Source: Verrucomicrobiota bacterium
GTDB lineage: Bacteria > Verrucomicrobiota > Verrucomicrobiia > Limisphaerales > UBA8199
Assembly (NCBI GenBank): GCA_012517205.1
Contig: JAAYVL010000122.1
Span: 10,729-74,728 of the forward strand
Length of the DNA: 64,000 bases
Direction: 5' to 3'
The notes under the pieces are model-generated. The model was not told the origin of the DNA. It saw only the letters and a list, made by a program, of their open reading frames with translations, and made no database searches. Positions 23,962-37,793 of this stretch are shown here, piece by piece (the stretch's first letter is position 1; every line of letters begins with the position of its first letter). The translations under genes and the position numbers were made by a program.

Positions 23962-24957
23962 ATGCAACAGAAAGTCCTTCTCCTTGGCGGCACCGGGAAT
24001 ATTTCCACCGCCTGTGCGGCGCAACTTCGCCAGCAGGGACACGAAATTTATATTCTCAGCCGGGGCCAAACAACAGTGCCCCCGGGCTACCAGCCCCTCC
24101 GGGCAGACCGCAAGGACCCGGCGGCTATGCGCCACGTTCTCAAAAGCGTGCGGCCCGACGTGGTGATTAATTTCATCGGGTATGATCTCCCCGAAGTGCA
24201 GATTGATTGCGAATTGTTCTCGGGCTCGGTAAGCCAATACGTTTTCATCAGTTCCGCAGTCGTATACGCCAAACCGCCCGCCCGGTTGCCCTTGACCGAG
24301 GACGCTCCCCTGGGCAATCCGTGGTGGGACTACGCGCAGAAGAAACTCGCGTGCGAACAATGGCTGCTTCAGCGGCGGCAGGAAACGGGCTACCCGGTGA
24401 CGATTGTTCGCCCTTCCCATACCTATTCCAAACTTTGGGTTCCCAACGCGGTCTCCAGTGGCAGCTATACGTTGGCTGCGCGGTTGGAACGCGGGAAAGC
24501 GGTTTTCGTGCATGATGACGGTGAAAGCCCCTGGACGCTGACCGCCGCCAGTGATTTTGCGATTGGACTCGCTGGCCTGGTGGGTAAACCGGCGGCCATT
24601 GGGGAGGCTTTCCACATTACCAGTGATGAAGTGCTCTCCTGGAACCAGATCTATGCCGAGATTGCCGCGGCTGTGGGGGCGGAGGCGCCGCGCGTGGTAA
24701 AGGTGCCGACGGACTTCATCTGCCAGGTGGCGCCGCAAATGACCGGTCCGCTCAAGGGCGACAAGGCCCATCCTGGGATATTCGACAACACCAAGATAAA
24801 GCGCCTGGTCCCGGAATTCCGTTGCCGCAAATCTTTCCATACGGGGGTTCGTGAGTCAGTACAATGGTTGCGCGCGCATCCCGAGCAGCAGAACCTCCGG
24901 CCGGAATTGGATGCTTTGATTGAAAACGTGATTACGGCGTGGGAACGGCAGGGATAG
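23962..24957 (+). CDS. NAD-dependent epimerase/dehydratase family protein
   Basis: The start at MQQKVLLLGGTGNIS gives a GxxGxxG Rossmann N-terminus. The gene follows the rfb genes. Substrate unknown. Confidence 0.65.
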   Translation: MQQKVLLLGGTGNISTACAAQLRQQGHEIYILSRGQTTVPPGYQPLRADRKDPAAMRHVLKSVRPDVVINFIGYDLPEVQIDCELFSGSVSQYVFISSAVVYAKPPARLPLTEDAPLGNPWWDYAQKKLACEQWLLQRRQETGYPVTIVRPSHTYSKLWVPNAVSSGSYTLAARLERGKAVFVHDDGESPWTLTAASDFAIGLAGLVGKPAAIGEAFHITSDEVLSWNQIYAEIAAAVGAEAPRVVKVPTDFICQVAPQMTGPLKGDKAHPGIFDNTKIKRLVPEFRCRKSFHTGVRESVQWLRAHPEQQNLRPELDALIENVITAWERQG

Positions 24958-25115
24958 CACTGCCGGGGTTCCCTCGTTCCTTCTTCCGGTGTCGCCCAAT
25001 TAAAGGCATTCGGGAGCAGAAGTCAGAGCAAAGAAAGGTTGGTAAATGACAAAGCGGATGCAGCTAATTTTGCTCCCCCGGCACTACGCTTTAACTTACT
25101 ATTGGCCCATGTGCT

Positions 25116-25343
25116 ATGCTGCCTCGGTTCGAACAGAGGGAAGACCGGCGTGAGTTTTTCCGCGCTGCCGCACGCTACGGCCTGCTGGCCGTGGTGAGTT
25201 CTATTGCCGCCCTGGCCGGCCGTTCGCGAAGGACGGAGAGGCAGCGGTGTTGGAACTCGGGCATTTGCCGGGGGTGTAGCCATTTTACCGCGTGCGGGCT
25301 GCCCGCGGCGCTTTCCGCCAAACGAGCCCAGTCAAGAGGCTGA
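25116..25343 (+). CDS. Small Tat-signal Cys/Trp-containing protein (75 aa), first gene of the redox operon
   Basis: Twin-arginine motif DRREFFRAAARYGLLAVVSSIAALAG, then CWNSGICRGCSHFTAC (C-x5-C-x2-C-x5-C). Its stop lies 1 nt before the next gene's start. No family recognised, so coding status rests on the signal motif and the coupling. Confidence 0.45.
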   Translation: MLPRFEQREDRREFFRAAARYGLLAVVSSIAALAGRSRRTERQRCWNSGICRGCSHFTACGLPAALSAKRAQSRG

Positions 25344-25344
25344 C

Positions 25345-26376
25345 GTGAACCCTGCGGAATCAATCCTCACCCGGCGGCGTTTCCTGGTAGGAACCGCGCG
25401 GGCTGCGGGTCTTCTCGCTGCGGGAGGCAGTACGGTTTCATGGCTGCGCGCCGCCAGTCCCGGGCGGGACGCGAATCCCTTCGCCCTTGATGTAGAACGA
25501 TTGCAGCACACGGATCCCAAGCTTATTCATTACGAACAAGTCGCCCGGTTCCAAGGCTGCGCTCCGGATCCGCGCCGCATTGCCGTTGGCCCGGATGATC
25601 GGGTGTACATCGCTGCGGCGAATGCCGTGACCATACTGGATTGCAACGGCAGACTCATCAGTGAAATTGCCTGTGCCGCACCCGTACGCTGCGTAGCGGT
25701 TGCCGCCGAGGGGACCGTGTATGTCGGGGTCAAGGATCACGTGGAAACATTCGATCGCACCGGCCAACGCCTCGCGACCTGGCCTTCCTCTGGCCGACGG
25801 ACCTGGCTAACCGGCCTGGCGGCGGGGGAGAAGGATGTCTTCGCGGCGGATTCAGGCAATCGTTGCGTGCTGCGCTATGATAAGGCCGGCAAACTCCTCG
25901 GCCGCATCGCTGAGCGGAACAAAGACCGCCACCTTCCCGGGTTGGTCGTGCCCAGTCCTTATTTGGACGTCAAGCTGGCGCCTGACGGCTTGCTGCGCGT
26001 CAACAACACCGGTCGTCATCGCGTGGAGGCCTATACGGTGGACGGCGACCTGGAATTCTTCTGGGGCCGCCCTTCCGCGGGCATTGAAGGATTTTGTGGC
26101 TGTTGCAATCCCGTTGGCCTTGCGCTGCTGCCCGACGGCCGCCATGTGACCTGCGAGAAAGGCTTGCCCCGGGTAAAAGTTTATTCGCCCAAAGGCGTCT
26201 TTGAGTCGGTCGTTGCCGGGACGGAAACCTTTTACGAAAATGCCAAGACGGGCGCGCTTAAAACCCGGTCGGACGGCCTGGTAGGCGGATTGGATGCCGC
26301 GGTAGATTCACAGCAGCGCATCTACATTCTTGACCTGGTTGCCAACGACGTCCGCATCATGCAGCGCAAAGCATGA
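25345..26376 (+). CDS. Tat-signal NHL-repeat six-bladed beta-propeller protein
   Basis: The GTG start gives VNPAESILTRRRFLVGTARAAGLLAAGG. Six NHL-like blades follow (DDRVYIAA, EGTVYVGV, DVFAADSGNRCVLRY, DGLLRVNNTGRHRVEAY, DGRHVTCEKGLPRVKVY, QRIYILDLVANDVRIM). An unusual FCGCCNP motif lies at nt 26092-26112. Confidence 0.65.
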   Translation: MNPAESILTRRRFLVGTARAAGLLAAGGSTVSWLRAASPGRDANPFALDVERLQHTDPKLIHYEQVARFQGCAPDPRRIAVGPDDRVYIAAANAVTILDCNGRLISEIACAAPVRCVAVAAEGTVYVGVKDHVETFDRTGQRLATWPSSGRRTWLTGLAAGEKDVFAADSGNRCVLRYDKAGKLLGRIAERNKDRHLPGLVVPSPYLDVKLAPDGLLRVNNTGRHRVEAYTVDGDLEFFWGRPSAGIEGFCGCCNPVGLALLPDGRHVTCEKGLPRVKVYSPKGVFESVVAGTETFYENAKTGALKTRSDGLVGGLDAAVDSQQRIYILDLVANDVRIMQRKA

Positions 26377-26945
26377 ACCCCGGCATCTCAAAACCGTCAT
26401 CGGTCACGCGGCGCCAGTTTCTGCGCGACGGGGCTCGCGCGGCCGGACTCGCGGGGTTGGGGGGCTTGCTGGGGCTGGTTGCCGAACGAAGCACCGCCAA
26501 GGGCACGGTTTGGCAAATCGACCCGCAGAAATGCGTGCGTTGCGGCAACTGCGCCCTTTATTGCGTGCTGGAGCAATCCGCGGTGAAGTGCGTCCACGCC
26601 TACGCCCTTTGCGGCTACTGCCAGCTCTGCACCGGTTATTTTGAACCCGACCCCAACGACTTGAATACCGGCGCGGAGAATTGCCTCTGCCCCACGTCCG
26701 CCATCAAGCGCACCTACATCGAGGACCCTTATTACGAATACACCATAGACGAACAACTTTGCATCGGGTGCGCCAAGTGCGTGGAAGGCTGCCATCGCTT
26801 CGGCAACGGCTCGCTCTTTTTGCAAGTGCGCCATGATCGCTGCCTGAACTGCAACGAATGCGCCATTGCCAAGGTTTGCGCCGGCGATGCCTTCCGCCGC
26901 GTGCCCGCCGATCAGCCCTATCTGCTGAAAACGGATACCTTTTGA
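26373..26945 (+). CDS. Tat-signal periplasmic ferredoxin with four 4Fe-4S-type motifs (NapG/NosG/MauM-like)
   Basis: ATGA overlap with the upstream gene. Tat motif VTRRQFLRDGARAAGLAGLG. Cys motifs CVRCGNCALYC, CGYCQLC..CLCP, CIGCAKCVEGC and CLNCNECAIAKVC. Confidence 0.75.
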   Translation: MNPGISKPSSVTRRQFLRDGARAAGLAGLGGLLGLVAERSTAKGTVWQIDPQKCVRCGNCALYCVLEQSAVKCVHAYALCGYCQLCTGYFEPDPNDLNTGAENCLCPTSAIKRTYIEDPYYEYTIDEQLCIGCAKCVEGCHRFGNGSLFLQVRHDRCLNCNECAIAKVCAGDAFRRVPADQPYLLKTDTF

Positions 26946-26946
26946 A

Positions 26947-28338
26947 ATGAAGATAGCAGGCCGCAGGCGGAAGACGAAAGGAGCTAGGGGTCGGCGCTGG
27001 GCATTGATCGGGGGGATGGCCTTGTTGTGGTTGCTATCCGCCGTGGCCAGCCTGGCGGAGCAGCGCTTTCCGCCGCCAGATTTTGAAGGCGGCCATCAAT
27101 TGCCTGTTACCACGACGCCGCCGGCGCGAGCCTTGACGTTGGATTACCTGGATGTCGGAGTGCTCGGGCTAAGCCTGGGGCTGGCGATCTGGCTGGTCTA
27201 TCGGCGGCGTTCCCGCAAAGGGCTGATCGTCCTTTCCATCTTCTCGCTGCTTTATTTTGGTTTTTGGCGCCATGGCTGCGTCTGCGCCATTGGCTCGCTG
27301 CAAAATGTCGCGCTGGCCCTGGGGGATCGTTCCTACGCCCTGCCGCTGGCTGTACTGGCCTTTTTTGTCCTGCCATTGGCGGTGGCAATTTTCGCCGGCA
27401 GGATCTTCTGCGCGGGGGTTTGCCCGCATGGCGCACTGCAAGACCTGGTCCTGCTGAAGCCGCTCAAAGTGCCCCCCGGGTTGGAAGCGGCGCTAAGCGT
27501 GCTGCCGTTTCTCTACCTGGGGGCCGGCGTTCTGTTCGCCGCCACGGGCAGCGCCTTCATTATCTGCGAGTATGATCCCTTTGTCCCAGTCTTCCGCTTA
27601 AGCGGGCGCGCGCTAATGGTGCTGAGCGGCGCGGCCTTGCTCGGCTTGAGCATATTCGTGGGCCGCCCTTATTGCCGGTTTTTATGCCCTTACGGAGCCC
27701 TGCTAAAGCTGGCCGCCGCCGTGGCGAAATGGCGCGTGCGGGTCACGCCTGACAACTGCACCCAATGCCGTTTATGCGAGGCGTCGTGCCCCTTTGGCGC
27801 CATGCGCGAGCCGCAAGCCCGCCCCGGCACTCAAACCCACGCCCGGGATCGCCGGCGCCTGGGATGGTTGCTCCTGCTCCTGCCACTGCTGCTGGCTGGC
27901 GGCGGCTGGCTCGGATACCGCTTCAGCGCACCCGCTTCGCGGCTGCATCCGACGGTCAGTCTGGCTGACCTGCTCATACGCGCGCAGGGAAGCCCTCCGA
28001 AGATTGGCGCGCTTACGCCGGACGACCTTGCGCTTGAACGCGCCAGGCAGGCGCCGCAGGAAATCCTGGCCGCCGCCGCTGCCATTCAACGGCGATTTGC
28101 CATCGGCGGCTGGATTTTCGGGGCCTGGGTTGGATTGGTATTCGGGGTGAAATTGATCAGTGTCTCAGTTCACCGCCCGCGAACTGATTACGAGCCTGAC
28201 TCGGGCGATTGTTTCGCCTGTGCGCGTTGCTTCGAGTATTGCCCCAATGAACTGGTTCGGCGCGGTGTCATTCCAGCTACAACGCTCACCGCCGCGGCCC
28301 CGGAAATTTCAGGCCCGCCCGGATTGGACCGGAGCTGA
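26947..28338 (+). CDS. Integral-membrane polyferredoxin (NapH/NosH/MauN-like, COG0348-type)
   Basis: Multiple helices. Motifs GCVCAIG, two CX3CP motifs (FCAGVCPHGALQD; YCRFLCPYGALL), and two CxxCxxCxxxCP ferredoxin motifs (CTQCRLCEASCP; CFACARCFEYCP). Confidence 0.7.
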   Translation: MKIAGRRRKTKGARGRRWALIGGMALLWLLSAVASLAEQRFPPPDFEGGHQLPVTTTPPARALTLDYLDVGVLGLSLGLAIWLVYRRRSRKGLIVLSIFSLLYFGFWRHGCVCAIGSLQNVALALGDRSYALPLAVLAFFVLPLAVAIFAGRIFCAGVCPHGALQDLVLLKPLKVPPGLEAALSVLPFLYLGAGVLFAATGSAFIICEYDPFVPVFRLSGRALMVLSGAALLGLSIFVGRPYCRFLCPYGALLKLAAAVAKWRVRVTPDNCTQCRLCEASCPFGAMREPQARPGTQTHARDRRRLGWLLLLLPLLLAGGGWLGYRFSAPASRLHPTVSLADLLIRAQGSPPKIGALTPDDLALERARQAPQEILAAAAAIQRRFAIGGWIFGAWVGLVFGVKLISVSVHRPRTDYEPDSGDCFACARCFEYCPNELVRRGVIPATTLTAAAPEISGPPGLDRS

Positions 28339-30165
28339 ATGCTGACCCGCCTTTTCCAAGTCGAAGCGGCCAGTCCCCCGCGCCAATCTGGCGGGGAGAC
28401 CGTGTTGCTGGCTTGGCGGCTGACGGCGTGGGTGGCCGGCGTTTTCTCCTTGCTGGTCGGCATCACTTTGCTGGTCGAACACACAAGGGCCAAACCCAAT
28501 GATCTGCTCCAACCGCCGCAGCTTATAGCCGCCAAGGAACAACTGCGGCTCGACCCTACCAACCCCCAACTTAAACAGGATATTCGAGAGCTCGATTGGC
28601 GGCTGCGGCAGCGTTATTTCCGTCATTTGGCGCTGATGGGATTTGGCGTGCATCTGCTGGCGGGCGGAGTCATCGTGCTGGTGCTGGCCATGATGCAGGC
28701 CGCCCGCTGCCGGAAACGGGTTCCTCTGCCCGGGCCCAAAGCTGCGATTCCCCACCCGGCCGCGCGCTTCGCAGCCCGCGCACGATGGGCGGTGGCGGCA
28801 TGCGGTATCGTTGTGGGAAGTGGCCTTTTTGTTCTAAGCCGCGCCCTTGGCCCGAACCTCCCCACGCCAGCGGCAGAGTTGGATAAACTGCTCGCCACCC
28901 GCCCGGAGGAATCGTCTTCTCCGGGGCATCCGCAGGCAGCCGATGCCGCCTCGCTCGCGGAACTTAGACAGAACTGGCCGCGCTTTCTCGGTGCGGACGG
29001 CAACAGCTTCTCGCCATCCACAAACGCGCCCGCAAGCTGGAATCCCCAGACCGGCGCGGGGATAGCCTGGAAGGTTCCAACGCCCACCCGGGGCTTTGGC
29101 TCGCCGATCGTCTGGGCCGGCCAGGTTTTTCTTTCCGGTGGTGATGCGCGCCAACGCGAGGTTATCTGTCTCGACGCCCAAACCGGCAAGATTCTCTGGC
29201 AGCAGCCCGTGGCCAGTGTTTCCGACCGCCCGGACCGCACGGAGGTGCCGGATTCCACCGGCTATGCCGCTCCGACCATGGCCACGGACGGGCGCCGCGT
29301 GTATGCGTTTTTTGCCAACGGAGACTGTGCCGCCTTTACGTTGGCAGGCCAGCCGGCCTGGGCCAGAAACTTCGGCCCGCTTAAAAATCCCTACGGCCAT
29401 GCCACGTCTCTCGCCACCTGGCGCGACCGCTTGATCCTGCAACTCGACCAGGGAGAGAGCGAGGACGGCAACTCCAAACTGTATGCCCTGGACGCGCGCA
29501 CCGGCCAGACTGTCTGGCAGCGCCCGCGCAAAACCGGCGCCACCTGGGCGACCCCGAACGTGATAGACGCGGAGGGCAAGGCGCAGGTGATCGCGTTGTC
29601 GGTTCCGTGGGTGATTGCCTACGCGGCGGCGGACGGCGCGGAAGTTTGGCGGGCGGAGTGCCTGAACGGGGAAATCGCCCCCTCGCCGGCCTGCGCGGGC
29701 GGCCTCCTGTTCGTAGCCAGCCCTTCGGAAAAGTTGCTGGCCATTCGCCCGTCAGGGCAGGGGGACATCACCCAAACCCATCTCCTTTGGACCTGGGAGG
29801 ACAGCATCCCCGATGTCACCAGCCCCGCCAGCGACGGCGAACTGGTTTTCATTCTCACCACCTCGGGCATGTTGACCTGCCTCGACGCCCGGGACGGCAA
29901 GAAACAATGGGAGCACGACTTGGAAATGGAATGCCACGCCTCGCCGGCCCTGGCCGCGGGCCGTCTTTACCTTTTTGGGCAAAAGGGCACCGCGGTCGTA
30001 GTCGCGGCGGCGCGGGAGTTCCGGGAATTGTTCCGCACGGAGATGGGAGACGCCTTTCATGCCAGCCCCGCGTTCGTTCAGGACCGGATGTTTCTGCGGG
30101 GGATGACCAACGTGTGGTGCGTGCGCACGATTAACGAAGCTGGGAAGGAGGGGGCGCAACCATGA
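28339..30165 (+). CDS. Membrane-anchored PQQ/BamB-like beta-propeller repeat protein
   Basis: Starts immediately after the upstream stop. Three N-terminal hydrophobic helices are followed by repeated propeller motifs (CLDAQTGKILWQ, ALDARTGQTVWQ, AAADGAEVWR, CLDARDGKKQWE). Confidence 0.65.
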   Translation: MLTRLFQVEAASPPRQSGGETVLLAWRLTAWVAGVFSLLVGITLLVEHTRAKPNDLLQPPQLIAAKEQLRLDPTNPQLKQDIRELDWRLRQRYFRHLALMGFGVHLLAGGVIVLVLAMMQAARCRKRVPLPGPKAAIPHPAARFAARARWAVAACGIVVGSGLFVLSRALGPNLPTPAAELDKLLATRPEESSSPGHPQAADAASLAELRQNWPRFLGADGNSFSPSTNAPASWNPQTGAGIAWKVPTPTRGFGSPIVWAGQVFLSGGDARQREVICLDAQTGKILWQQPVASVSDRPDRTEVPDSTGYAAPTMATDGRRVYAFFANGDCAAFTLAGQPAWARNFGPLKNPYGHATSLATWRDRLILQLDQGESEDGNSKLYALDARTGQTVWQRPRKTGATWATPNVIDAEGKAQVIALSVPWVIAYAAADGAEVWRAECLNGEIAPSPACAGGLLFVASPSEKLLAIRPSGQGDITQTHLLWTWEDSIPDVTSPASDGELVFILTTSGMLTCLDARDGKKQWEHDLEMECHASPALAAGRLYLFGQKGTAVVVAAAREFRELFRTEMGDAFHASPAFVQDRMFLRGMTNVWCVRTINEAGKEGAQP

Positions 30166-32594
30166 ACCCGGCGCGCACTGAACCCGGCGTCGGGCCGGTG
30201 GATCTCCAATACGTAGATGCCGCCATCCAACGCATTGGCCGCGCGCCCGATGCGGTCATCCCCTTGCTCCAGGCCATTCAGGATCACTATGGCTACCTGC
30301 CGGAAGCCGCGTTGCGGCGGGTCTGCGCGGCCACGCAAATCACGCCGGCGGGAATCAATGGGGTGGCCACGTTCTACGACATGTTCCGGCATCGCCCCGG
30401 CGGCAAGCATATTGTCCAGGTATGCCACGGCACGGCCTGCCACGTGGGCGGTTCCGAGCGGGTCGAAGAGGCGCTCCGCCGCCACCTGGCGATACCGGAA
30501 GGGTCGGATACGGACGCCGCGCGGCGCTTCACCCTCGAGCGGGTGGCCTGTCTCGGCTGCTGCACCCTTGCCCCCGTCGTGCGCATCGAGAAGGAAACCA
30601 TTGGCTATGCCGCGGCGGAAAAGGTTCCCGAGACCATCGCGGGATTCCTCGCCAACCGGCAGGAAGCCGCTGCCACCCCAACGGTTGCGACCCCCGCGCC
30701 GCGGACCGGCGCCGCTGAAATCAGGGTCTGCCTCGATTCGTGCTGCCTGGCGAAGGGGACGGATCACTCGTTCCGGGCCTTGCAGCAGAGCCTCGCAAAG
30801 CACGGCGCAAACGCCACCCTGAAGCGGGTCGGCTGTGTGGGGGCCTGCTATCGCACGCCGATGGTCGAAATCGCGATTCCCGGCCAGCCCAGCATCATCT
30901 ATGAGGGGGTGACCCCGGAGCAGGCCGGCAGGCTGGTGGAAACTCACTTCCGGCCGGCGGGGCTGACGCCGCGTATTTCGCAGTTATACACCCGGATCGT
31001 GGACGGCCTGCTCGTGGAAGATGCGGACGCCATCCCGCCGCCCGGCCGCCCGGCGGATGCCAAAGACGGCGCCGGCGACCAGGCATTCTTTCGGCGGCAG
31101 GTCCATATTGCCATGGAGCATTATGGCCGCCTCGACCCGCTGGATCTGGACGAATACCTGGCGCACGATGGCTTTGCGGCTTTGCGCAAGTGCCTGGGAA
31201 TCCCTCCCCCCGAGGAAAATCGGCGGGTAGACGGCGGCCCCAATTCCGCGGCGGTCTCCCCGGAGCAAATCATCACCTCCCTGGAACGCTCCGGTTTGCG
31301 CGGGCGCGGCGGCGCGGGCTTTCCCACCGGCCAGAAATGGCGCATGGTTCGCCAGCAACCCGGCGCGACCAAATACGTCATCTGCAACGGCGATGAAGGC
31401 GACCCCGGCGCATTCATGGATCGGATGATCCTGGAATCCTTCTCCTACCGGGTCATTGAAGGACTGGCCATTGCGGCCGTGGCCATCGGCGCCCACGAAG
31501 CCATTTTCTACATCCGGCACGAGTATTCCCAGGCCTTGCAGCGCGTCCGGGCCGCGCTGGCGGAATGCGAGCGGCGCGGGTGGATCGGGCCGCGCTTGCT
31601 GGGCAGCGATTATCCGCTGCGCATCACCATCAAGGAGGGAGCGGGCGCGTTTGTTTGCGGAGAAGAGACGGCTTTGATTGCCTCCGTCGAGGGGCGCCGC
31701 GGCATGCCGCGCTTGCGCCCGCCGTTTCCGGCTCAAGCCGGCCTGTGGGGCAAGCCCACCCTCATCAACAACGTCGAAACCCTCGCCATGGTGCCGTGGA
31801 TTATCCGCCGCGGCGCGGAAGCGTTTGCCGCCATCGGAACCGCCGCCAGCAAGGGCACCAAGGTATTCTCCCTCGCGGGCAAGGTCCGGCGCGCCGGCCT
31901 GATCGAAATCCCCATGGGCACGACCCTCCGCCAGATTGTCGAGGAAATCGGCGGCGGGATTGCGGACGGCCGGACCTTCAAAGGAGTCCAGATCGGCGGG
32001 CCCTCCGGTGGCTGCGTTCCGGCGCGCCTGGCGGATACGCCGGTGGACTATGAGTCGCTGCGCGACATCGGCGCCATCATGGGCTCCGGCGGCATGGTGG
32101 TGCTCGATGACACCGCCTGCATGGTGGACCTCGCGCGGTATTTCCTGCAATTCACGCAAAATCAGTCCTGCGGCAAATGCACCTTCTGTCGCATTGGCAC
32201 CAAGCGGATGCTGGAACTGCTCGAACTCTTCTGCGCCGGCCAGGCCACCCGCAAACACCTGCGGGAGCTGGAGCAACTGGCGCCCCAGGTATCCGCGGGA
32301 AGCCTTTGCGGCCTCGGCAAAACCGCCCCCAACCCGGTGCTGACCACGCTGCGCTATTTCCGCGACGAATACGAGGCGCACCTGCAGGGCCGCTGCCCCG
32401 CCGGCCGGTGCAAGGCGCTGATCAAATATCGGGTGGGGGATAATTGCACCGGCTGCACCCTTTGCGCGCAGCATTGTCCGGCCGACGCCATCCCCATGAC
32501 CCCGTATGAGCGGCATGTGATTGACCTGCAAAAGTGCACGCGCTGCGATTCCTGCCGGCAGGTGTGCCCCTACGGGGCGGTGGAGATCGTATGA
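30162..32594 (+). CDS. NuoE-NuoF fusion flavoprotein (NADH-binding, FMN and Fe-S subunit; HydB/HndC/StnC-like)
   Basis: ATGA overlap with the upstream gene. Domain order: NuoE-type 2Fe-2S (CHGTAC...CLGCC), a second thioredoxin-like Fe-S domain (CLDSCC...CVGAC), then NuoF motifs GLRGRGGAGFPTGQKW, YVICNGDEGDPGAFMDR and SCGKCTFCRIG. A C-terminal 2x[4Fe-4S] domain follows (CTGCTLCAQHCP; CTRCDSCRQVCP). Confidence 0.85.
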   Translation: MNPARTEPGVGPVDLQYVDAAIQRIGRAPDAVIPLLQAIQDHYGYLPEAALRRVCAATQITPAGINGVATFYDMFRHRPGGKHIVQVCHGTACHVGGSERVEEALRRHLAIPEGSDTDAARRFTLERVACLGCCTLAPVVRIEKETIGYAAAEKVPETIAGFLANRQEAAATPTVATPAPRTGAAEIRVCLDSCCLAKGTDHSFRALQQSLAKHGANATLKRVGCVGACYRTPMVEIAIPGQPSIIYEGVTPEQAGRLVETHFRPAGLTPRISQLYTRIVDGLLVEDADAIPPPGRPADAKDGAGDQAFFRRQVHIAMEHYGRLDPLDLDEYLAHDGFAALRKCLGIPPPEENRRVDGGPNSAAVSPEQIITSLERSGLRGRGGAGFPTGQKWRMVRQQPGATKYVICNGDEGDPGAFMDRMILESFSYRVIEGLAIAAVAIGAHEAIFYIRHEYSQALQRVRAALAECERRGWIGPRLLGSDYPLRITIKEGAGAFVCGEETALIASVEGRRGMPRLRPPFPAQAGLWGKPTLINNVETLAMVPWIIRRGAEAFAAIGTAASKGTKVFSLAGKVRRAGLIEIPMGTTLRQIVEEIGGGIADGRTFKGVQIGGPSGGCVPARLADTPVDYESLRDIGAIMGSGGMVVLDDTACMVDLARYFLQFTQNQSCGKCTFCRIGTKRMLELLELFCAGQATRKHLRELEQLAPQVSAGSLCGLGKTAPNPVLTTLRYFRDEYEAHLQGRCPAGRCKALIKYRVGDNCTGCTLCAQHCPADAIPMTPYERHVIDLQKCTRCDSCRQVCPYGAVEIV

Positions 32595-34663
32595 GCGCCA
32601 TCGCCATCCACATTGATGGGCGGCCGGTGTCCGTGCCGCCGGGCACCACGATTCTGGGCGCCGCGCGCCAACTGGGCATCGCCATCCCAACCCTCTGCCA
32701 CGTCGAGGGCTTCGAGCCGTCCGCTTCCTGCTTTCTGTGCGCGGTGCAGATCGAAGGACGCCCCAATCTTTGGCCGTCCTGCGCCACGCCGGTTGCCCCC
32801 GGAATGGCGGTGATCACGAATTCGGCGGAGGTCCGGGCCGCCCGCAAGACCGCGCTGGAATTGCTGCTTTCCGACCACGCGGGCGATTGTGTGGCCCCGT
32901 GTCATACCGGCTGCCCGGCGGGGCTGGACATCCCCGGGTTCATCGCCCGCATTGCGGCCGGTGATAACGCCGCCTCGGCGCGCCTGGTGACCGACGGGCT
33001 TACCCTGCCCGCCTCGCTGGGGCGGGTATGCCCGCGGCTGTGCGAACAGCATTGCCGGCAATGCGATGTGACGGAGGCGCTCTCCATCCGCAACCTGCAT
33101 CGCTTCAGCGCCGATTACCAGCGCCAGGCAAAATCACCGCCCCCGCCCGCTGACCCTCCGGCGCCTCCCACCGGCCGGCGGGTGGCCATCGTCGGAGCCG
33201 GCCCGGCGGGGTTGGCCGCCGCGCATCACCTGCTGGGCCAGGGACACGCGGTGGCGCTGTTCGATGCCCATTCGCAACCCGGCGGGATGCTGCGCTATGG
33301 CATCCCGGCCTTTCGTTTGCCCCGGCAGGTGCTCGATGCGGAAATCCAAGCGATCCGCGCCCTGGGCGCCGAATTTCACCTGGGCCGGCGGTTGGGCCGC
33401 GACTTGGCCCTGGACAACCTGCGGCGCGACTTCGATGCCGTATTCCTGGCCATCGGCGCGCAAGGCTCCCGCAGCCTGGGGTGCCCGGGTGAAGAGCTTG
33501 CCACCTCCGCCCTGGAGTTCCTGGAAACGATCGCGGACGGCTTCCCCCCCGCGATTGACGGAGATGTCATTGTGGTGGGCGGCGGCAACACCGCGATGGA
33601 CGCCAGCCGTTGCGCCGTGCGCCTGGGCGCCCGCTCGGTGCGGGTGCTTTACCGCCGCACGCGCCGCGAGATGCCGTGCCTCATGGAAGAAGTGGAGGCG
33701 GCGGAGGCCGAGGGGGTCCAGGTCGAATTCCTCGTCGCCCCCGCCCGATTGGAGCGCAAGGAGGGAAAGCTGAACCTCATCTGTCAGCGAATGGAATTGG
33801 GGCCACCCGATGCCAGCGGTCGCGCGCGGCCGGTGCCCGTCCCCGGCTCGGAATTCGCCTTGCCCGCCACTTGCGTCATCGCCGCCATCGGCCAGCACGT
33901 CAAGACCGACGGCCTGGATCATTCGCAACTCGCGCTGTCGAAATGGGGCATTGCCGCCGACCCTAAAACCCTGGCCACGAATTTGCCCGGCGTATTCGCC
34001 GGCGGCGATGCCGTTTCCGGCCCGGATTTGGCCGTGCGGGCGGTAGCGGCCGGCAAACTTGCCGCCGTGGCCATCCACCAATACCTGGCCGGGCAAAAAG
34101 TGGTCGGCACGCCCCCCCTGGCCAGCGTCATGATGGGCAAGCTGAGTGAAGCAGAGCTGGCGGTGCTCCTGCGCGACATCGAGCAGGCGCCGCGCGCGCC
34201 CATGCCGCATCTGCCCCTGGAAGCTCGGCGGACTACCTTTGACGAGGTGGAACTGGGCTTCTCCCTCGAAACGGCTACGCGCGAGTCACGGCGCTGCCTG
34301 GGGTGCGGTTGCGGCAAGGCCGTTCCCTGCCGCCTCCGCCAGGTCGCCACCGAGTACGGCGTGGATCCCCAGCGTTTCGTTGGCGAGCGGCGCCTCTTTA
34401 CGCGCGACACCTCTCACCCGGACATCATCTTCGAGCCGGGCAAGTGCATCCTTTGCGGCGCCTGCCTGCAAGTAGCCGCCCAGGCGGGTGAAGAACTGGG
34501 GCTATCCTTCGCCGGACGCGGCTTCCAGGTGTCGGTGGCCCCCCCCTTCCATCGCCCGGTGGCGGAAGCCCTGCGTCAATCGGGTCGCCGTGCCGCCGAA
34601 GTCTGTCCCACGGGGGCGATTATGCTCAAAAGCGCCGGGTGCGCCGGTTGCCGTCTGGCCTGA
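32591..34663 (+). CDS. 2Fe-2S ferredoxin / GltD-like NAD(P)H-FAD oxidoreductase fusion with extra C-terminal Cys motifs
   Basis: ATGA overlap at MSAIAIHIDG. Domain order: a NuoG-N-terminal-like 2Fe-2S domain, a GltD-type Fe-S region (DCVAPCHTGCPAGLDIP), then dinucleotide folds VAIVGAGPAGLAAA and VIVVGGGNTAMD. The C-terminus carries CLGCGCG...CILCGAC. Confidence 0.8.
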   Translation: MSAIAIHIDGRPVSVPPGTTILGAARQLGIAIPTLCHVEGFEPSASCFLCAVQIEGRPNLWPSCATPVAPGMAVITNSAEVRAARKTALELLLSDHAGDCVAPCHTGCPAGLDIPGFIARIAAGDNAASARLVTDGLTLPASLGRVCPRLCEQHCRQCDVTEALSIRNLHRFSADYQRQAKSPPPPADPPAPPTGRRVAIVGAGPAGLAAAHHLLGQGHAVALFDAHSQPGGMLRYGIPAFRLPRQVLDAEIQAIRALGAEFHLGRRLGRDLALDNLRRDFDAVFLAIGAQGSRSLGCPGEELATSALEFLETIADGFPPAIDGDVIVVGGGNTAMDASRCAVRLGARSVRVLYRRTRREMPCLMEEVEAAEAEGVQVEFLVAPARLERKEGKLNLICQRMELGPPDASGRARPVPVPGSEFALPATCVIAAIGQHVKTDGLDHSQLALSKWGIAADPKTLATNLPGVFAGGDAVSGPDLAVRAVAAGKLAAVAIHQYLAGQKVVGTPPLASVMMGKLSEAELAVLLRDIEQAPRAPMPHLPLEARRTTFDEVELGFSLETATRESRRCLGCGCGKAVPCRLRQVATEYGVDPQRFVGERRLFTRDTSHPDIIFEPGKCILCGACLQVAAQAGEELGLSFAGRGFQVSVAPPFHRPVAEALRQSGRRAAEVCPTGAIMLKSAGCAGCRLA

Positions 34664-34741
34664 CCACCCCAGCGCAACTCGCTGGGAGCGAGCAGGAGCA
34701 CGACAAAGCACCGATCTTGGCCTTTTTAAGCCACGCCGGAC

Positions 34742-34758
34742 TGTCCAATTATTGGACA
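34742..34758. repeat. 17-bp perfect palindrome TGTCCAATTATTGGACA (second occurrence)
   Basis: Read directly. It lies 78 nt after the operon stop and 90 nt before hairpin copy 2. Confidence 0.8.
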
Positions 34759-34847
34759 CTTTCCGCTTTCCAACTTCATAACCCACGTCGAGCACCGGTT
34801 TCGACTTAACTTCAATCATTCCACCATCATCCATAGCAGCCTCCTGC

Positions 34848-34944
34848 CCGTGTACAAGGGGTGTACAACGGATGCTCATCGGGATTACATCGGTTTTTCT
34901 GTTGTTCATCCGGTGAGCATCCGATGTACACCCCTTGTACACGG
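34848..34944. repeat. Hairpin repeat copy 2
   Basis: CCGTGTACAAGGGGTGTACAACGGATGCTCATCGG ... CCGGTGAGCATCCGATGTACACCCCTTGTACACGG. Relative to copy 1, two substitutions are present in both arms (compensated). There is also one mismatch and one G-T pair. Confidence 0.9.
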
Positions 34945-35129
34945 CGTCTTGGGAGGGTGGCAGGACGCCATTTGGGGGTTGCGGTTGGCGGGGGATTGCG
35001 GGATGGGGTTTCGCGCTGTTCGCCGAGTTGAGGGTGTGTTTCGGCAAGCCGGTTTGTCAGCTCAGATTGAGAGGCGCGGCCATCAGCGCGTCCTTGCTTC
35101 CTCCCCGCCGGAATTGCTAATCTTCCAGC

Positions 35130-37793
35130 ATGTCTCGCAAGGCGTCAGCAAGCTCAGACTCCTCCCGTGGGTTTAACGACATCATCGGGATCGTGCTGAT
35201 GTGTCTCGCTATTTTGCTGATGGTGGCGCTGCTCTCCTACCATCCGCGTGACGTATCGGCCAATGCGGTGCCGCATAACCAGCCGGCGCTGAACTGGATC
35301 GGCCCATTTGGGGCGTGGATGGCGTATGGCTGTTTCCTGACCCTTGGGGCGGCGGCTTTTGTGCTGCCGGTGGTGTTGTTTTTCGTCGGCGTGGGGTGCT
35401 TTTTCGAAATGTTCGCCTACTTGCGCCGCCGCTGGGTCTGGGCGGTGGTGCTGTTGATCTGCTGCATGGGGCTGCTGGACATCTATCGGCATTACCTGGG
35501 CGGCCTGGAGCGGAACCTGGGCGTGGTGGCGGGCGGCATTCTCGGGCGCAACCTCAACCAGCATCTCTTCAGCGAGTGTTTTGGCGCCGTGGGGGCCACG
35601 ATCATTTTCCTCATGCTCTATTTTATCAGCCTCCTCTTCCTGACGAATTTCCAGTTGGGCGACTGGGTCCGGGCCTTATGGAGCCGGCGTCCCCGGGCGG
35701 GGGGCAAAGCGGTCACTGAGGAGCAGGCGCTGGAACAGCGGGCGCGGGAGTTGCAGCAACAGGCTCGCAAGCTGCAGGAGGAAGTGGATCGCGCCGGGCT
35801 GGGCGCGGATATGCAGCCGGTGCCCAAGCCGACCGTGCGCGACCTGAGCGTGCCGGAGGCCAATAAGGCTGCGCGGGGCCGGAAAGCTGCCGCGGCCAGT
35901 CCCGCTCCGGAGCCGGCTCCGGCAGATGAGGGCGAAGTCATCCCGGCGCATGAAGTGGCCGCCGCCACCACGGCCGAGGTTTTGGGCCAGCCCCCGGAAC
36001 CGGTTGCGGATTCGGCCGAGGCCCGGGCGGCCGGGGACAAAGCGGAAACCGCCGCGGCGGAGAAATCCGAGGGCGCCGACAAGCCGTCCGAGCCCCGGCG
36101 CGACCAGGAAGTGGTTATTCACGGCCTGCCCTCCGCGGCGTCCGCCAGGCCCCGGAAGAAGCCCAAGCCGATCGCCGTCGCCGCCGCGCCCGTGATCGGT
36201 AACTACCAGTTGCCGCCCCTGGATTTCCTGCAGCATCCCGATCCCAACCTGAAGCCCACCGAATCCAAGGAGGAGCTGCTGGCCAATGCCCGGTTAATGC
36301 AGCAGACGCTGGCCCAGTTTGAAATCCCCGTCGAGTTGGGCGATATCACCAAGGGCCCCACCATCACCCGCTACGAGTTGCATCCCGCGCCCGGCGTCAA
36401 GCTGGAGAAGATTACCGCGCTCAATAACAATCTGGCTGCCGCACTCAAGGCCGAGCGCATCCATATTCTGGCGCCGGTGCCCGGCAAGAGTTCCGTCGGC
36501 ATCGAGGTGCCCAATCCGGTCAAGACCGCCGTAATTATCCGCGACCTGCTGGAATCGGAGGAATGGCGCAACACCAAAGCCCGCATCCCGCTGGCGCTGG
36601 GCAAGGACGTTTATGGCCACCCGATTATCAGTGACCTTTCGGAGATGCCGCATTTGCTCATCGCCGGGAGCACGGGCGCGGGCAAATCCGTTTGCATCAA
36701 CGCCATCATCACCTCGTTGCTCTATCGGTTTCCGCCCGACCGGCTGCGCTTCGTGATGATTGATCCGAAGGTGGTGGAGCTGCAGCAGTACAACCTGCTG
36801 CCGCACCTGGTGGTCCCGGTGGTCACCGACCCCAAGAAGGTCATTCTGGCCCTGCGCTGGGTGGTGAACGAGATGGAAAAGCGCTATCAGATTTTCGCGC
36901 GGGTGGGCGTGCGCAACATCCTGTCCTTCAATTCGCGGCCCCGGAACAAGCCGCTGCCGCCGCGCGAGCCCGAGCTGGAGCTCCTGGCCCGGAAGGAAAA
37001 GGTGGAGCCGGGCGCCGACGGCTTTGCCGTGGAGGTGGACGAGGCCATCGTAGTCCCGCGCGAGGAGGACATCGTCATCCCGGAGAAGCTCAGCTACATC
37101 GTGGTGATCATTGACGAACTGGCTGACCTCATGCTGGTCGCGCCGGCGGACGTGGAAATGGCCATCGCGCGTATCACGCAGATGGCGCGCGCGGCGGGCA
37201 TCCACTGCATCGTCGCCACCCAGCGGCCGAGCGTGGACGTCATCACCGGCGTCATCAAAGCCAACATTCCCGCGCGCATCGCGTTTCAGGTGGCGGCCAA
37301 GGTGGATTCGCGGACGATTCTTGATGCGATGGGCGCGGATAAACTGCTCGGCAAAGGGGACATGCTGTTCCTGCCGCCCGGGTCGGCCAAACTCATCCGG
37401 GCCCAGGGCTCGCTCATTACCGATCAGGAGATCCAGAACATCGTGGAGTTCATCGCGAAGCAGGGCAAGCCGAGCTATGAACTCGAGATTCACCAGCAGC
37501 TTTCCCGCGCTGACAACGGCAGCGGGAGCGGGTCCGGCATTGATGAGGACGAAGAGATCATCCAGGACTGCATCGAAGTCATCCGGAGCGAGCAGAAGGC
37601 CAGCGTCTCCCTCCTCCAGCGCCGCCTGCGCCTGGGCTATGGCCGCGCCGCGCGCATCATGGATGAGTTGGAGAACCGCGGCATTGTCGGCCCCAGCAAG
37701 GGCGCCGAGCCGCGGGATATTCTCATTGACCTGGATGGCGGCGGGGCGGACGGGCGGCCGCCGCAGAATGAGGAGCCTCCGCCCCCGGCTTGA
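35130..37793 (+). CDS. ftsK: DNA translocase FtsK
   Basis: N-terminal membrane helices and a Pro/Ala/Glu-rich linker precede the motor domain (LLIAGSTGAGKSV, IVVIIDELADLM, IVATQRPSVDVITG). A C-terminal gamma winged helix follows (ASVSLLQRRLRLGYGRAARIMDELE). Confidence 0.9.
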   Translation: MSRKASASSDSSRGFNDIIGIVLMCLAILLMVALLSYHPRDVSANAVPHNQPALNWIGPFGAWMAYGCFLTLGAAAFVLPVVLFFVGVGCFFEMFAYLRRRWVWAVVLLICCMGLLDIYRHYLGGLERNLGVVAGGILGRNLNQHLFSECFGAVGATIIFLMLYFISLLFLTNFQLGDWVRALWSRRPRAGGKAVTEEQALEQRARELQQQARKLQEEVDRAGLGADMQPVPKPTVRDLSVPEANKAARGRKAAAASPAPEPAPADEGEVIPAHEVAAATTAEVLGQPPEPVADSAEARAAGDKAETAAAEKSEGADKPSEPRRDQEVVIHGLPSAASARPRKKPKPIAVAAAPVIGNYQLPPLDFLQHPDPNLKPTESKEELLANARLMQQTLAQFEIPVELGDITKGPTITRYELHPAPGVKLEKITALNNNLAAALKAERIHILAPVPGKSSVGIEVPNPVKTAVIIRDLLESEEWRNTKARIPLALGKDVYGHPIISDLSEMPHLLIAGSTGAGKSVCINAIITSLLYRFPPDRLRFVMIDPKVVELQQYNLLPHLVVPVVTDPKKVILALRWVVNEMEKRYQIFARVGVRNILSFNSRPRNKPLPPREPELELLARKEKVEPGADGFAVEVDEAIVVPREEDIVIPEKLSYIVVIIDELADLMLVAPADVEMAIARITQMARAAGIHCIVATQRPSVDVITGVIKANIPARIAFQVAAKVDSRTILDAMGADKLLGKGDMLFLPPGSAKLIRAQGSLITDQEIQNIVEFIAKQGKPSYELEIHQQLSRADNGSGSGSGIDEDEEIIQDCIEVIRSEQKASVSLLQRRLRLGYGRAARIMDELENRGIVGPSKGAEPRDILIDLDGGGADGRPPQNEEPPPPA

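Follow-up and report, generated by a model that had tools for sequence, protein, structure and literature searches.

A Bfu-type gene pair at the end of a seven-gene operon

The DNA analyzed here is a window of 64,000 nucleotides from a Verrucomicrobiota bacterium (GenBank assembly GCA_012517205.1, contig JAAYVL010000122.1, positions 10,729 to 74,728), and our subject is a pair of forward-strand genes within it that encode an 810-amino-acid (aa) fusion of BfuC to BfuB and a 690-aa truncated BfuA. These are subunits of the Bfu enzymes, a recently recognized and mechanistically debated electron-bifurcating family, and in the window they close a seven-gene operon that also encodes membrane and periplasmic redox proteins. 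A first-pass annotation made from the sequence alone had likened the pair to Stn/Bfu-type enzymes, and the homology proved strong: NfnB and StnB are the best Protein Data Bank (PDB) matches of the fusion, and the BfuA protein aligns over ∼675 residues of NfnA and StnC. We add four points to that annotation, namely the absence of the FdhF-like domain, the loss of one BfuA cluster motif, the presence of histidine in place of the lysine ligand of cluster A7, and the lack of the NADPH subdomain in most relatives of the pair.

The layout proposed for the fusion protein, a NuoE-type domain, a second thioredoxin-like domain, a NuoF core, and a C-terminal 2x[4Fe-4S] domain, was recovered in full by Pfam, with 2Fe-2S_thioredx in two stretches, Complex1_51K at residues 375 to 545, SLBB, NADH_4Fe-4S at 656 to 740, and the 2x[4Fe-4S] domain at 757 to 808; the NCBIfam NuoF and NuoE models scored below or near their cutoffs. 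In a phmmer search of the PDB the best matches were NfnB of Thermococcus sibiricus (Tsib; 9n5u_B, E value 5e-204), the B subunit of Caldicellulosiruptor saccharolyticus (Csac) NfnABC (9bov_B, 1e-202), and the NuoF-like subunit of Sporomusa ovata (Sova) Stn (8oh5_B, 1e-196), followed by HydB of the bifurcating NiFe and FeFe hydrogenases (1e-164 to 3e-186), with complex I NuoF and the formate dehydrogenase (FDH) beta subunit reaching only ∼1e-100 to 1e-115. Identity over the ∼500-residue BfuB core follows the same order, at ∼56% to the Csac, Tsib, and Sova Nfn/Stn proteins, 51 to 54% to HydB, 45% to the HoxF encoded in the same genome, and 38% to its NuoF.

The cofactor ligands of the Bfu core are complete (Table 1). 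We aligned 55 fused homologues with 16 separately encoded BfuB rows, comprising 14 classical sequences and two (L058 and L062) that are truncated members of the membrane-associated clade described below. The four C1 ligands are invariant in all 55 clade members, and both the B1 ligands and a 3Cys-1His site are invariant in clade and classical sequences alike. The latter is the putative B2 site, assigned from the conserved H...CPxxxC motif and not from coordinates; the B2 site of the Bfu family consists of three cysteines and one histidine and holds Zn or, in one enzyme, a 2Fe-2S cluster. The eight cysteines of B3 and B4 (762, 765, 768, 772, 792, 795, 798, and 802) are also invariant, and the domain that carries them, which is absent from non-bifurcating homologues (PMC9304861), is missing from the HoxF and NuoF of this genome. 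Two features are specific to the clade: a cysteine at position 195, found in 54 of the 55 membrane-clade sequences and replaced by glycine in 15 of the 16 comparison rows, and an insertion at residues 267 to 291, whose columns are filled in >70% of membrane-clade but <20% of classical sequences. That this insertion serves as a docking element is only a guess. Alignment to the Nfn, Stn, and HydB proteins further located the residues of the flavin mononucleotide (FMN)/NADH site highlighted as a signature for Tsib NfnB (PMC12018979), i.e., the D, A, and M of GDEGDPGAFMDR, the F and E of GAGAFVCGEE, and the GGPSG loop. These residues are not diagnostic by themselves, since the non-bifurcating HoxF of the same genome shares these motifs.

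For the 690-aa protein, Pfam confirmed a 2Fe-2S domain followed by a GltD-like flavin adenine dinucleotide (FAD)/NAD(P)H module and extra cysteine motifs (numbered from an upstream GTG, Fer2_4 at residues 22 to 97, Fer4_20 at 119 to 199, Pyr_redox_2 at 216 to 507, and then the C-terminal motifs, which align with the NuoG-like [4Fe-4S] clusters of NfnA and StnC). The NCBIfam model NF009454 (“putative NADPH-dependent glutamate synthase small subunit”) matched with 672 bits against a cutoff of 916. Residues 3 to 680 align with residues 3 to 674 of Csac NfnA (1,178 aa) and residues 1 to 681 with residues 1 to 675 of Sova StnC (1,172 aa). Because this alignment stops near residue 675 and the inactive FdhF-like domain of Stn comprises StnC residues 683 to 1172 (PMC10482914), the protein ends at the boundary of that domain: the pterin-less FdhF-like domain of StnC and NfnA (∼500 aa, clusters A4/A5) is missing, and the terminal CAGC, which aligns with the first two cysteines of the cluster of the missing domain, reads as a truncation scar.

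Within the part that remains, the A1 ligands, the six cysteines of the GltD-type cluster pair, and two NuoG-like motifs are invariant in all classes of BfuA, and the GGGNTAMD and YRRTRREMP motifs of the NADPH subdomain are as intact as in classical NfnA. The second CxxCxxCxxxCP motif of classical NfnA is missing from this protein and from the whole membrane clade. The non-cysteine ligand position of cluster A7, occupied by lysine in all 12 classical sequences, is His170 here and histidine in 5 of 6 full-length membrane-type sequences. In the characterized enzymes this cluster has three cysteine ligands plus a lysine ligand, and the lysine is essential for activity (PMC11829005, PMC12018979, PMC10482914; mutagenesis in PMC10482914 and PMC12018979).

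Table 1. Positions within the window of the Bfu gene pair, its domains, and the upstream genes of the operon
Feature	Coordinates	Strand	Evidence
BfuC-BfuB fusion (NuoE-NuoF type), 810 aa	30162..32594	+	ORF, Pfam, PDB phmmer (NfnB/StnB/HydB)
BfuC/NuoE-like domain, residues ∼15-165; C1 [2Fe-2S] ligands C88, C93, C130, C134	30204..30656	+	Pfam 2Fe-2S_thioredx 19-160; NCBIfam NuoE/HoxE/FdsG models
Second thioredoxin-like domain, B5 site, residues ∼185-263; Cys 190, 194, 195, 225, 229	30714..30950	+	Aligns with NfnB, StnB, and HydB N-terminal domains
Insertion of ∼20-25 residues, 267-291, GLTPRISQLYTRIVDGLLVE..DAI	30960..31034	+	Absent from classical BfuB
NuoF-type FMN/NAD(H) core; B1 [4Fe-4S] C670, C673, C676, C716; putative B2 Zn-type site C653, H740, C745, C750	31254..32396	+	Pfam
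C-terminal 2x[4Fe-4S] domain, B3/B4 (ferredoxin-site clusters of Bfu enzymes)	32424..32591	+	Pfam Fer4_7/Fer4_21 at 757-808
Truncated BfuA (NfnA/StnC-like), 690 aa	32591..34663	+	NCBIfam NF009454; alignment to NfnA/StnC
N-terminal [2Fe-2S] domain, A1; C36, C47, C50, C64	32591..32881	+	Pfam Fer2_4; NCBIfam HoxU/NuoG/HydA N-terminus models
GltD/DPD-type domain, two [4Fe-4S], A6/A7; C100, C104, C108, C147, C151, C155, His170	32882..33130	+	Pfam Fer4_20, alignments
FAD domain with inserted NAD(P)H-binding subdomain (residues 297-442, 33479-33916)	33173..34105	+	Pfam Pyr_redox_2
NuoG-like C-terminal region; [4Fe-4S] motifs C569/572/574/580 and C619/622/625...C672; terminal CAGC C684, C687	34283..34660	+	Alignment
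Small exported protein, 75 aa, four Cys, first operon gene	25116..25343	+	ORF; tblastn (adjoins NHL gene in 12 loci)
Twin-arginine translocation (Tat)-signal (RRRF) six-bladed NHL propeller, invariant FCGCCNP	25342..26376	+	AlphaFold2 (AF2) model, predicted local distance difference test (pLDDT) score 89
Tat-signal (RRQF) NapG-like polyferredoxin, 190 aa, four Cys-cluster motifs	26373..26945	+	Pfam, NCBIfam, sequence
NapH/NosR-family membrane protein, ∼eight helices	26947..28338	+	Pfam Fer4_5; NCBIfam napH/NosR models below cutoff
PQQ_2/BamB-like beta-propeller behind three-helix N-terminal membrane anchor	28339..30165	+	Pfam PQQ_2, 2.5e-36

The open reading frame (ORF) listing gives the pair on one strand, and the stop-to-stop ORF of the second gene extends to a GTG farther upstream, at 32534; alignment of residues 1 to 681 from residue 1 of StnC and NfnA supports the ATG at 32591 as the start. 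The start of the fusion gene overlaps the stop of the upstream pyrroloquinoline quinone (PQQ)-like propeller gene (ccATGAacc, ATGA at 30162 to 30165) and the start of the BfuA gene overlaps the stop of the fusion gene (gtATGAgc, 32591 to 32594), a GGAGG-like sequence preceding each ATGA. The five genes 5' of the pair likewise abut or overlap, giving an operon at 25116 to 34663. The proposed translational coupling to membrane and periplasmic redox genes is borne out by these overlaps and by a linkage conserved across phyla, and the annotation was also right that no hydrogenase or FDH catalytic gene adjoins the pair: Pfam and NCBIfam annotation of the neighbors returned none, and the operon is flanked by rmlD, rmlB, and a short-chain dehydrogenase/reductase gene upstream and by ftsK downstream. 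A promoter and terminator scan of 24800 to 35200 gave nothing above chance. The 466-bp gap between the operon stop and ftsK contains a long, near-perfect inverted repeat of GTGTACAAGGGG-type units (34848 to 34944, with flanks extending over 34742 to 35038).

Among the upstream products, the 75-aa protein belongs to no Pfam family, and the NapG-like ferredoxin is the best-conserved accessory protein, with 49 to 91% identity across the related loci. The PQQ-like propeller gene lies directly 5' of the fusion gene in nearly all of these loci. The NapH-like protein has 15 invariant cysteines, arranged as a GCxC motif, two CX3CP motifs, one cysteine in a helix-loop, and two CxxCxxCxxxCP motifs split by a long helical hairpin, and it includes a NuoI-like 2x[4Fe-4S] domain predicted to be cytoplasmic. 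All NapH models scored far below their cutoffs (56 bits against 213), and the AF2 model (pLDDT 86; predicted template-modeling score [pTM] 0.83) has ∼eight long helices. The best 120 of its 4,402 homologues are close relatives with generic names (“ferredoxin,” “NosR/NirI family”), and no fusion proteins were seen among them. From the positive-inside rule and the known topology of NapH we infer that the two [4Fe-4S] and CX3CP motifs are cytoplasmic and that the GCxC motif and C207 lie near the periplasmic face. The invariant cysteines C111 and C113 (GCxC) and C207 would thus be on the periplasmic side, in addition to the cytoplasmic cluster motifs, and with this predicted topology, having metal or redox sites on each face would be in keeping with a protein that conducts electrons across the membrane.

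Phylogeny and gene neighborhood of the membrane-associated clade

Related loci were taken as the best 80 of at least 594, mostly on contigs of metagenome-assembled genomes (MAGs), with locus ORFs approximated from stop to stop. Wherever a contig was long enough, tblastn and ORF comparison showed the order NHL, Tat-ferredoxin, NapH-like, PQQ-like, BfuCB, and BfuA on one strand, and this six-gene order occurs in Verrucomicrobiota, Planctomycetota, Bacteroidota, Hydrogenedentota, Calditrichota, KSB1, Latescibacterota, Spirochaetota, Kiritimatiellota, and Lentisphaerota. Classical Nfn-Bfu loci (from Bacillota and a second Bacteroidota/Ignavibacteriota set) have a separate BfuC, a BfuB of ∼585 to 620 aa, and an NfnA of ∼1,130 to 1,260 aa, without the membrane genes. 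One Prolixibacteraceae genome encodes a classical Nfn-Bfu as well as a complete membrane-type cluster, and in two Pirellulaceae genomes the pair stands alone with the NHL, ferredoxin, NapH, and PQQ genes together on another contig. No NapH orthologue was found in Thermosediminibacter or in another genome that has the classical type only. In an even sample of the phylum to which the window belongs, a NapH orthologue was present in 21 of 201 good genomes (about 10%), which represent 16 of 104 genera.

We performed a phylogenetic analysis of BfuB (81 rows including five PDB sequences; IQ-TREE quick search under LG+C20, with support from the Shimodaira-Hasegawa-like approximate likelihood ratio test [SH-aLRT] and HydB as the outgroup) in which all fused, membrane-context BfuB sequences came together as a single clade (SH-aLRT 100, stem 0.37). 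The clades with Csac NfnB, Sova StnB, the stand-alone enzymes of Bacteroidota, and Tsib NfnB form its sister group. By this placement the window BfuB lies outside the complex I, Hox, and FDH families and also outside the characterized Nfn-Bfu group. The affinity proposed by the first-pass annotation is supported: the gene belongs beside Nfn-Bfu and not with complex I, Hox, or FDH, in a separate sister clade rather than among the characterized enzymes.

The BfuA partners of this clade have been remodeled. In 41 of 47 the NAD(P)H-binding subdomain (residues 297 to 442 of the window protein) is cleanly deleted, while the FAD Rossmann half and the clusters are kept. A BfuA tree built without the columns of this subdomain recovered the short forms as monophyletic (support 98), pointing to a deletion of single origin, and placed the full-length membrane-type proteins as a basal grade formed by the window with L001, L010, and L077 and then by L021 and L048. 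The NADPH motifs are degenerate in L021 and L048 and intact in the lineage of the window. Together these forms document a stepwise remodeling of a Stn-like ancestor, in which the FdhF-like domain was lost first, after which the NADPH subdomain decayed and was finally deleted. Since 41 of 47 partners have deleted the subdomain, NADPH coupling is not the conserved or defining function of the clade. What all of its members have in common is the lost FdhF-like domain and the association with membrane genes, and the window carries the rarer, basal form with an intact NADPH port.

The two trees disagree on the window itself. Its BfuB nests in Verrucomicrobiota that have short BfuA partners (loci L002 to L009), and its BfuA groups with the full-length protein of an Acidobacteriota locus (L077) and is only ∼45% identical to other Verrucomicrobiota partners; replacement of the BfuA gene inside the operon is one possible explanation. 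In a locus from Kiritimatiellia (L056:12295-13614), BfuA is only ∼440 aa long and has lost both the FAD domain and the NADPH subdomain, keeping the 2Fe-2S cluster, the GltD-type cluster pair, and the NuoG-like clusters as a bare iron-sulfur wire.

A basal contig from a Planctomycetaceae MAG (L062:1067-2137) encodes a separate NuoE (BfuC) with two N-terminal transmembrane helices. The order on this single MAG contig is NapH-like, then NuoE directly with no propeller gene between them, then a separate 630-aa BfuB, and the NapH-like protein has a ∼180-residue insertion in a periplasmic loop. Homology of the NuoE anchor to the N-terminal anchor of the PQQ-like protein was considered and rejected (hhalign probability 1.5%). 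Longer clusters from many phyla (L020, L037, L029, L025, L056, and others) carry on the same strand one to three further PQQ_2-type propellers (∼430 to 480 aa), a GT4 glycosyltransferase (∼445 aa), an ATP-binding cassette (ABC) ATPase (∼235 aa), and a double FtsX/MacB-type permease (∼1,100 aa); orthologues of all four of these extra genes are scattered in the genome of the window (C18:18926-23032, C140:421-1728, C53:86873-88153, and C177:12563-13810). Two loci labeled “uncultured Bifidobacterium sp.” (L015 and L079) also carry the cluster, and as they group tightly with Verrucomicrobiota in both the BfuB and BfuA trees we suggest that they are misbinned contigs.

A predicted transmembrane electron-transfer complex and its alternatives

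The assembly is 3.6 Mb in size and 93% complete, and it encodes three Complex1_51K proteins: the fusion described here, one in a HoxEFUYH cluster for an NAD-reducing [NiFe] hydrogenase (C164:13409-18562), and one in a nuo operon (C173), the latter two clusters each having their own E, F, and G (or U) subunits. We found no [FeFe] hydrogenase in the genome. Its one Fdh-alpha-like gene, on C7, belongs to a formate hydrogenlyase (FHL)-like cluster (C7:35183-43304), where the genes that follow it encode Fe-S and FAD subunits, a subunit of the antiporter-like type, and the large subunit of a group-4 [NiFe] hydrogenase; the Fdh-alpha-like protein is 23 to 30% identical to the FdhF-like domain of classical NfnA, is without N-terminal NuoG-like domains, and has Cys-Asn where FdhF has selenocysteine/Cys-His. 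Pyruvate:ferredoxin oxidoreductase (PFOR) is encoded, as is a classical NfnAB (C92:3329-5766) whose small subunit matches P. furiosus NfnI (5jca_S; E value 2e-86), with an NfnL-like gene adjoining. With complex I, Hox, an FHL-like cluster, and a classical NfnAB all present, the pair is neither a displaced N-module nor the only transhydrogenase of this organism.

We consider it fairly probable that the pair forms a Bfu-family flavoprotein that acts as the cytoplasmic NAD(H)/NADP(H)/ferredoxin head of a seven-protein, membrane-spanning complex, to which it is linked through the NapH-like protein. Comparison at the sequence level supplies the homology, the full ligand set of the Bfu core, and a distinct clade whose genes nearly always have NHL, Tat-ferredoxin, NapH-like, and PQQ-like genes as neighbors. 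The predicted activity would be a bifurcation or confurcation in which NAD(H), ferredoxin, and a third substrate take part. In the solved NfnABC structures, NADPH reduces FAD and electrons pass along A7-A6-A3-A2-A1 to the B1-FMN-C1 site, where NAD+ is reduced at FMN and low-potential electrons exit through C1 and B3/B4 to ferredoxin (PMC11829005, PMC12018979). By analogy, NADPH would reduce the FAD of the 690-aa protein, electrons would follow the BfuA cluster chain to the B1-FMN-C1 site, and there they would be split between NAD+ and ferredoxin, or would run in reverse. The NapH-like polyferredoxin would exchange electrons with the BfuA chain via its cytoplasmic clusters. The most parsimonious docking site for it would be the BfuA face exposed by loss of the FdhF-like domain, which we favor because the domain, whose absence is a derived character of the whole clade, disappeared at the point where the membrane association arose and because the third substrate of Bfu enzymes generally enters through BfuA (PMC9304861). 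The NAD(H), NADP(H), and ferredoxin pools could thereby be connected either with the exported NapG-like ferredoxin and the propellers in the periplasm or with menaquinone. Net flow would more plausibly be outward, with NAD(P)H and reduced ferredoxin as donors and a periplasmic acceptor or the quinone pool as the sink, since the organism is fermentative, with PFOR, Hox, and FHL-like enzymes.

Several observations weigh against this proposal or limit it. That the NapH-like protein binds the Bfu module is deduced from operon linkage, which is not proof of a physical complex, and the proposed docking site, flow direction, and terminal substrate are likewise deduced. The lysine ligand of A7 that is essential in Stn and Nfn is a histidine here. 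Because the NADPH site is intact, the pair could act as an ordinary Stn-type transhydrogenase. Fold searches found no solved relative of the NapH-like protein (best E value 0.24) and, for the NHL propeller, generic NHL domains only, with no hint of a substrate. The trees come from quick searches in which SH-aLRT is the only measure of support, and the loci behind them are the top 80 out of at least 594, most of them on MAG contigs.

The strongest competing explanation is that the pair is a non-bifurcating NAD(P)H dehydrogenase, comparable to the N-module of complex I, that feeds the NapH-like protein, with B3/B4 wired to the polyferredoxin domain of the latter in place of soluble ferredoxin and no energetic coupling. 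The NuoI-like domain of the NapH-like protein could occupy the place where ferredoxin binds, and on the single MAG contig L062 the two transmembrane helices of NuoE anchor BfuC at the membrane beside NapH; in Tsib NfnABC, half of the ferredoxin site is contributed by BfuC (PMC12018979). Moreover, NADH is the only evident soluble substrate for most clade members, which have lost NADPH binding, and the FMN-site motifs shared with HoxF are no proof of bifurcation. However, the Bfu-specific cofactor set (B2, B3/B4, B5, and the mobile C1 domain) is invariant in the 55 clade members, which is hard to explain for a plain dehydrogenase, and the BfuA chain is kept despite the decay of its FAD/NADPH end, implying two distinct exits in addition to FMN. 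The genome also encodes PFOR and hence has a ferredoxin pool. We regard this simpler function as unlikely, though a real contender.

Alternatively, the pair could be an ordinary Stn/NfnABC transhydrogenase that is free in the cytoplasm, with its operon position reflecting coregulation only. Its NADPH, FAD, FMN, and cluster sites are all intact, the homology to biochemically proven Nfn-Bfu enzymes is strong, and the separation of the pair from the membrane genes in the two Pirellulaceae genomes is what such a function would allow. We nevertheless judge this improbable: the pair belongs to a separate clade with near-universal synteny in at least 10 phyla, and most members of that clade cannot bind NADPH, so that transhydrogenation is not its conserved function. 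The genome already has a classical NfnAB, whereas in acetogens Stn and Nfn hardly ever occur together (PMC7483475), and the Prolixibacteraceae genome has both the classical and the membrane type. The oligomerization domain of Stn is lost (PMC10482914), and so is the A7 lysine.

That the pair is the displaced NAD(H) module of a hydrogenase, an FDH, or complex I whose catalytic genes lie elsewhere, a scenario the first-pass annotation had named as fatal to its proposal and one suggested by the shared NuoE-, NuoF-, and NuoG-type domains and by the Fdh-alpha-like protein on C7 without NuoG-like domains of its own, is already largely refuted, given that the complex I, Hox, and FHL-like clusters are separate and complete with their own modules, that the C7 protein belongs to the last of these and is only distantly similar to the FdhF-like domain, that [FeFe] hydrogenase was not found, and that the BfuB tree places the gene beside Nfn-Bfu.

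Returning to the membrane-spanning complex that we favor, we tentatively suggest a broader reading, which we hold as possible but somewhat doubtful: a new class of membrane-anchored Bfu enzymes, bifurcating or confurcating, in which the NADPH port for the third substrate is supplemented in the window, and replaced in most relatives, by a NapH-like transmembrane Fe-S conduit, such that cytoplasmic NADH and ferredoxin are energetically coupled to redox chemistry at novel periplasmic propellers and the protein described here is an intermediate with both ports. If true, this would extend bifurcation chemistry to transmembrane electron transfer and would provide a defined partner for the cytoplasmic clusters of NapH/NosR-type proteins, which have long lacked an explanation. 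The clade has a wide distribution across Planctomycetota, Verrucomicrobiota, Bacteroidota, and several candidate phyla. The form found in the window is the most tractable for biochemistry because its intact NADPH port provides a soluble, assayable donor.

Relation to characterized and predicted enzymes

To our knowledge, all characterized Bfu enzymes are soluble, and complex I or Mbh-type modules are the only membrane partners in the forms predicted to be membrane bound. In the open-access literature we found no description of a system that joins NapH, NuoF, GltD, a propeller, and bifurcation, and the Bfu family paper, three Nfn/Stn structure papers, and a survey of Bfu enzymes in Hydrogenedentota contain no mention of NapH, periplasmic partners, or a shortened GltD-type BfuA.

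The NapGH and NosGH proteins are quinol-dehydrogenase modules of the periplasmic nitrate and nitrous-oxide reductase systems. The operon resembles NapGH in pairing a membrane protein of the NapH type, with CX3CP and cytoplasmic [4Fe-4S] motifs, with a Tat-exported NapG-like polyferredoxin. It differs in the extra helical hairpin between the cluster motifs and in its partners, which are the propellers and the Bfu module; neither a NapA nor a NosZ gene is found alongside. With the N-module of complex I (NuoEFG) and with HoxEFU the pair shares the NuoE/NuoF/NuoG-N-terminal fold and the FMN/NADH site, but those enzymes lack the B3/B4 clusters, the B2 site, and the GltD insertion.

The closest precedents for a membrane association are Nuo-Bfu and Mbh-Bfu, the membrane-bound Bfu enzymes predicted by Schut et al. 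in 2022 (PMC9304861), in which a BfuABC-type module likewise shares its operon with genes for membrane proteins, so that a coupling of NADH and ferredoxin to some process at the membrane is predicted. Their partners, however, are complex I or Mbh antiporter-like modules, in contrast to the NapH/NosR-family polyferredoxin, Tat-ferredoxin, propellers, and GltD-type BfuA seen here, and the words “NapH,” “periplasm,” and “GltD” do not occur in that paper.

The pair is most similar to NfnABC and StnABC, electron-bifurcating NADH-dependent ferredoxin:NADP+ oxidoreductases (Csac 9bov/9bp5, Tsib 9n5u, and Sova 8oh5; PMC11829005, PMC12018979, PMC10482914, PMC7483475), with which it shares the same three modules and the cluster, FMN, FAD, and NADPH motifs of the Bfu core. 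Whereas those are stand-alone, three-gene, soluble enzymes, the pair fuses BfuC to BfuB in a two-gene form within a seven-gene operon for membrane and periplasmic redox proteins, in a genome that also has a classical NfnAB. It further differs from them in the missing FdhF-like domain, the histidine in place of lysine at A7, the extra B5 cysteine, the insertion of ∼20 to 25 residues, and its position in a separate sister clade. The pair belongs to an apparently undescribed sub-branch close to NfnABC/StnABC, and the complex as a whole may be a new class of membrane-bound Bfu enzyme.

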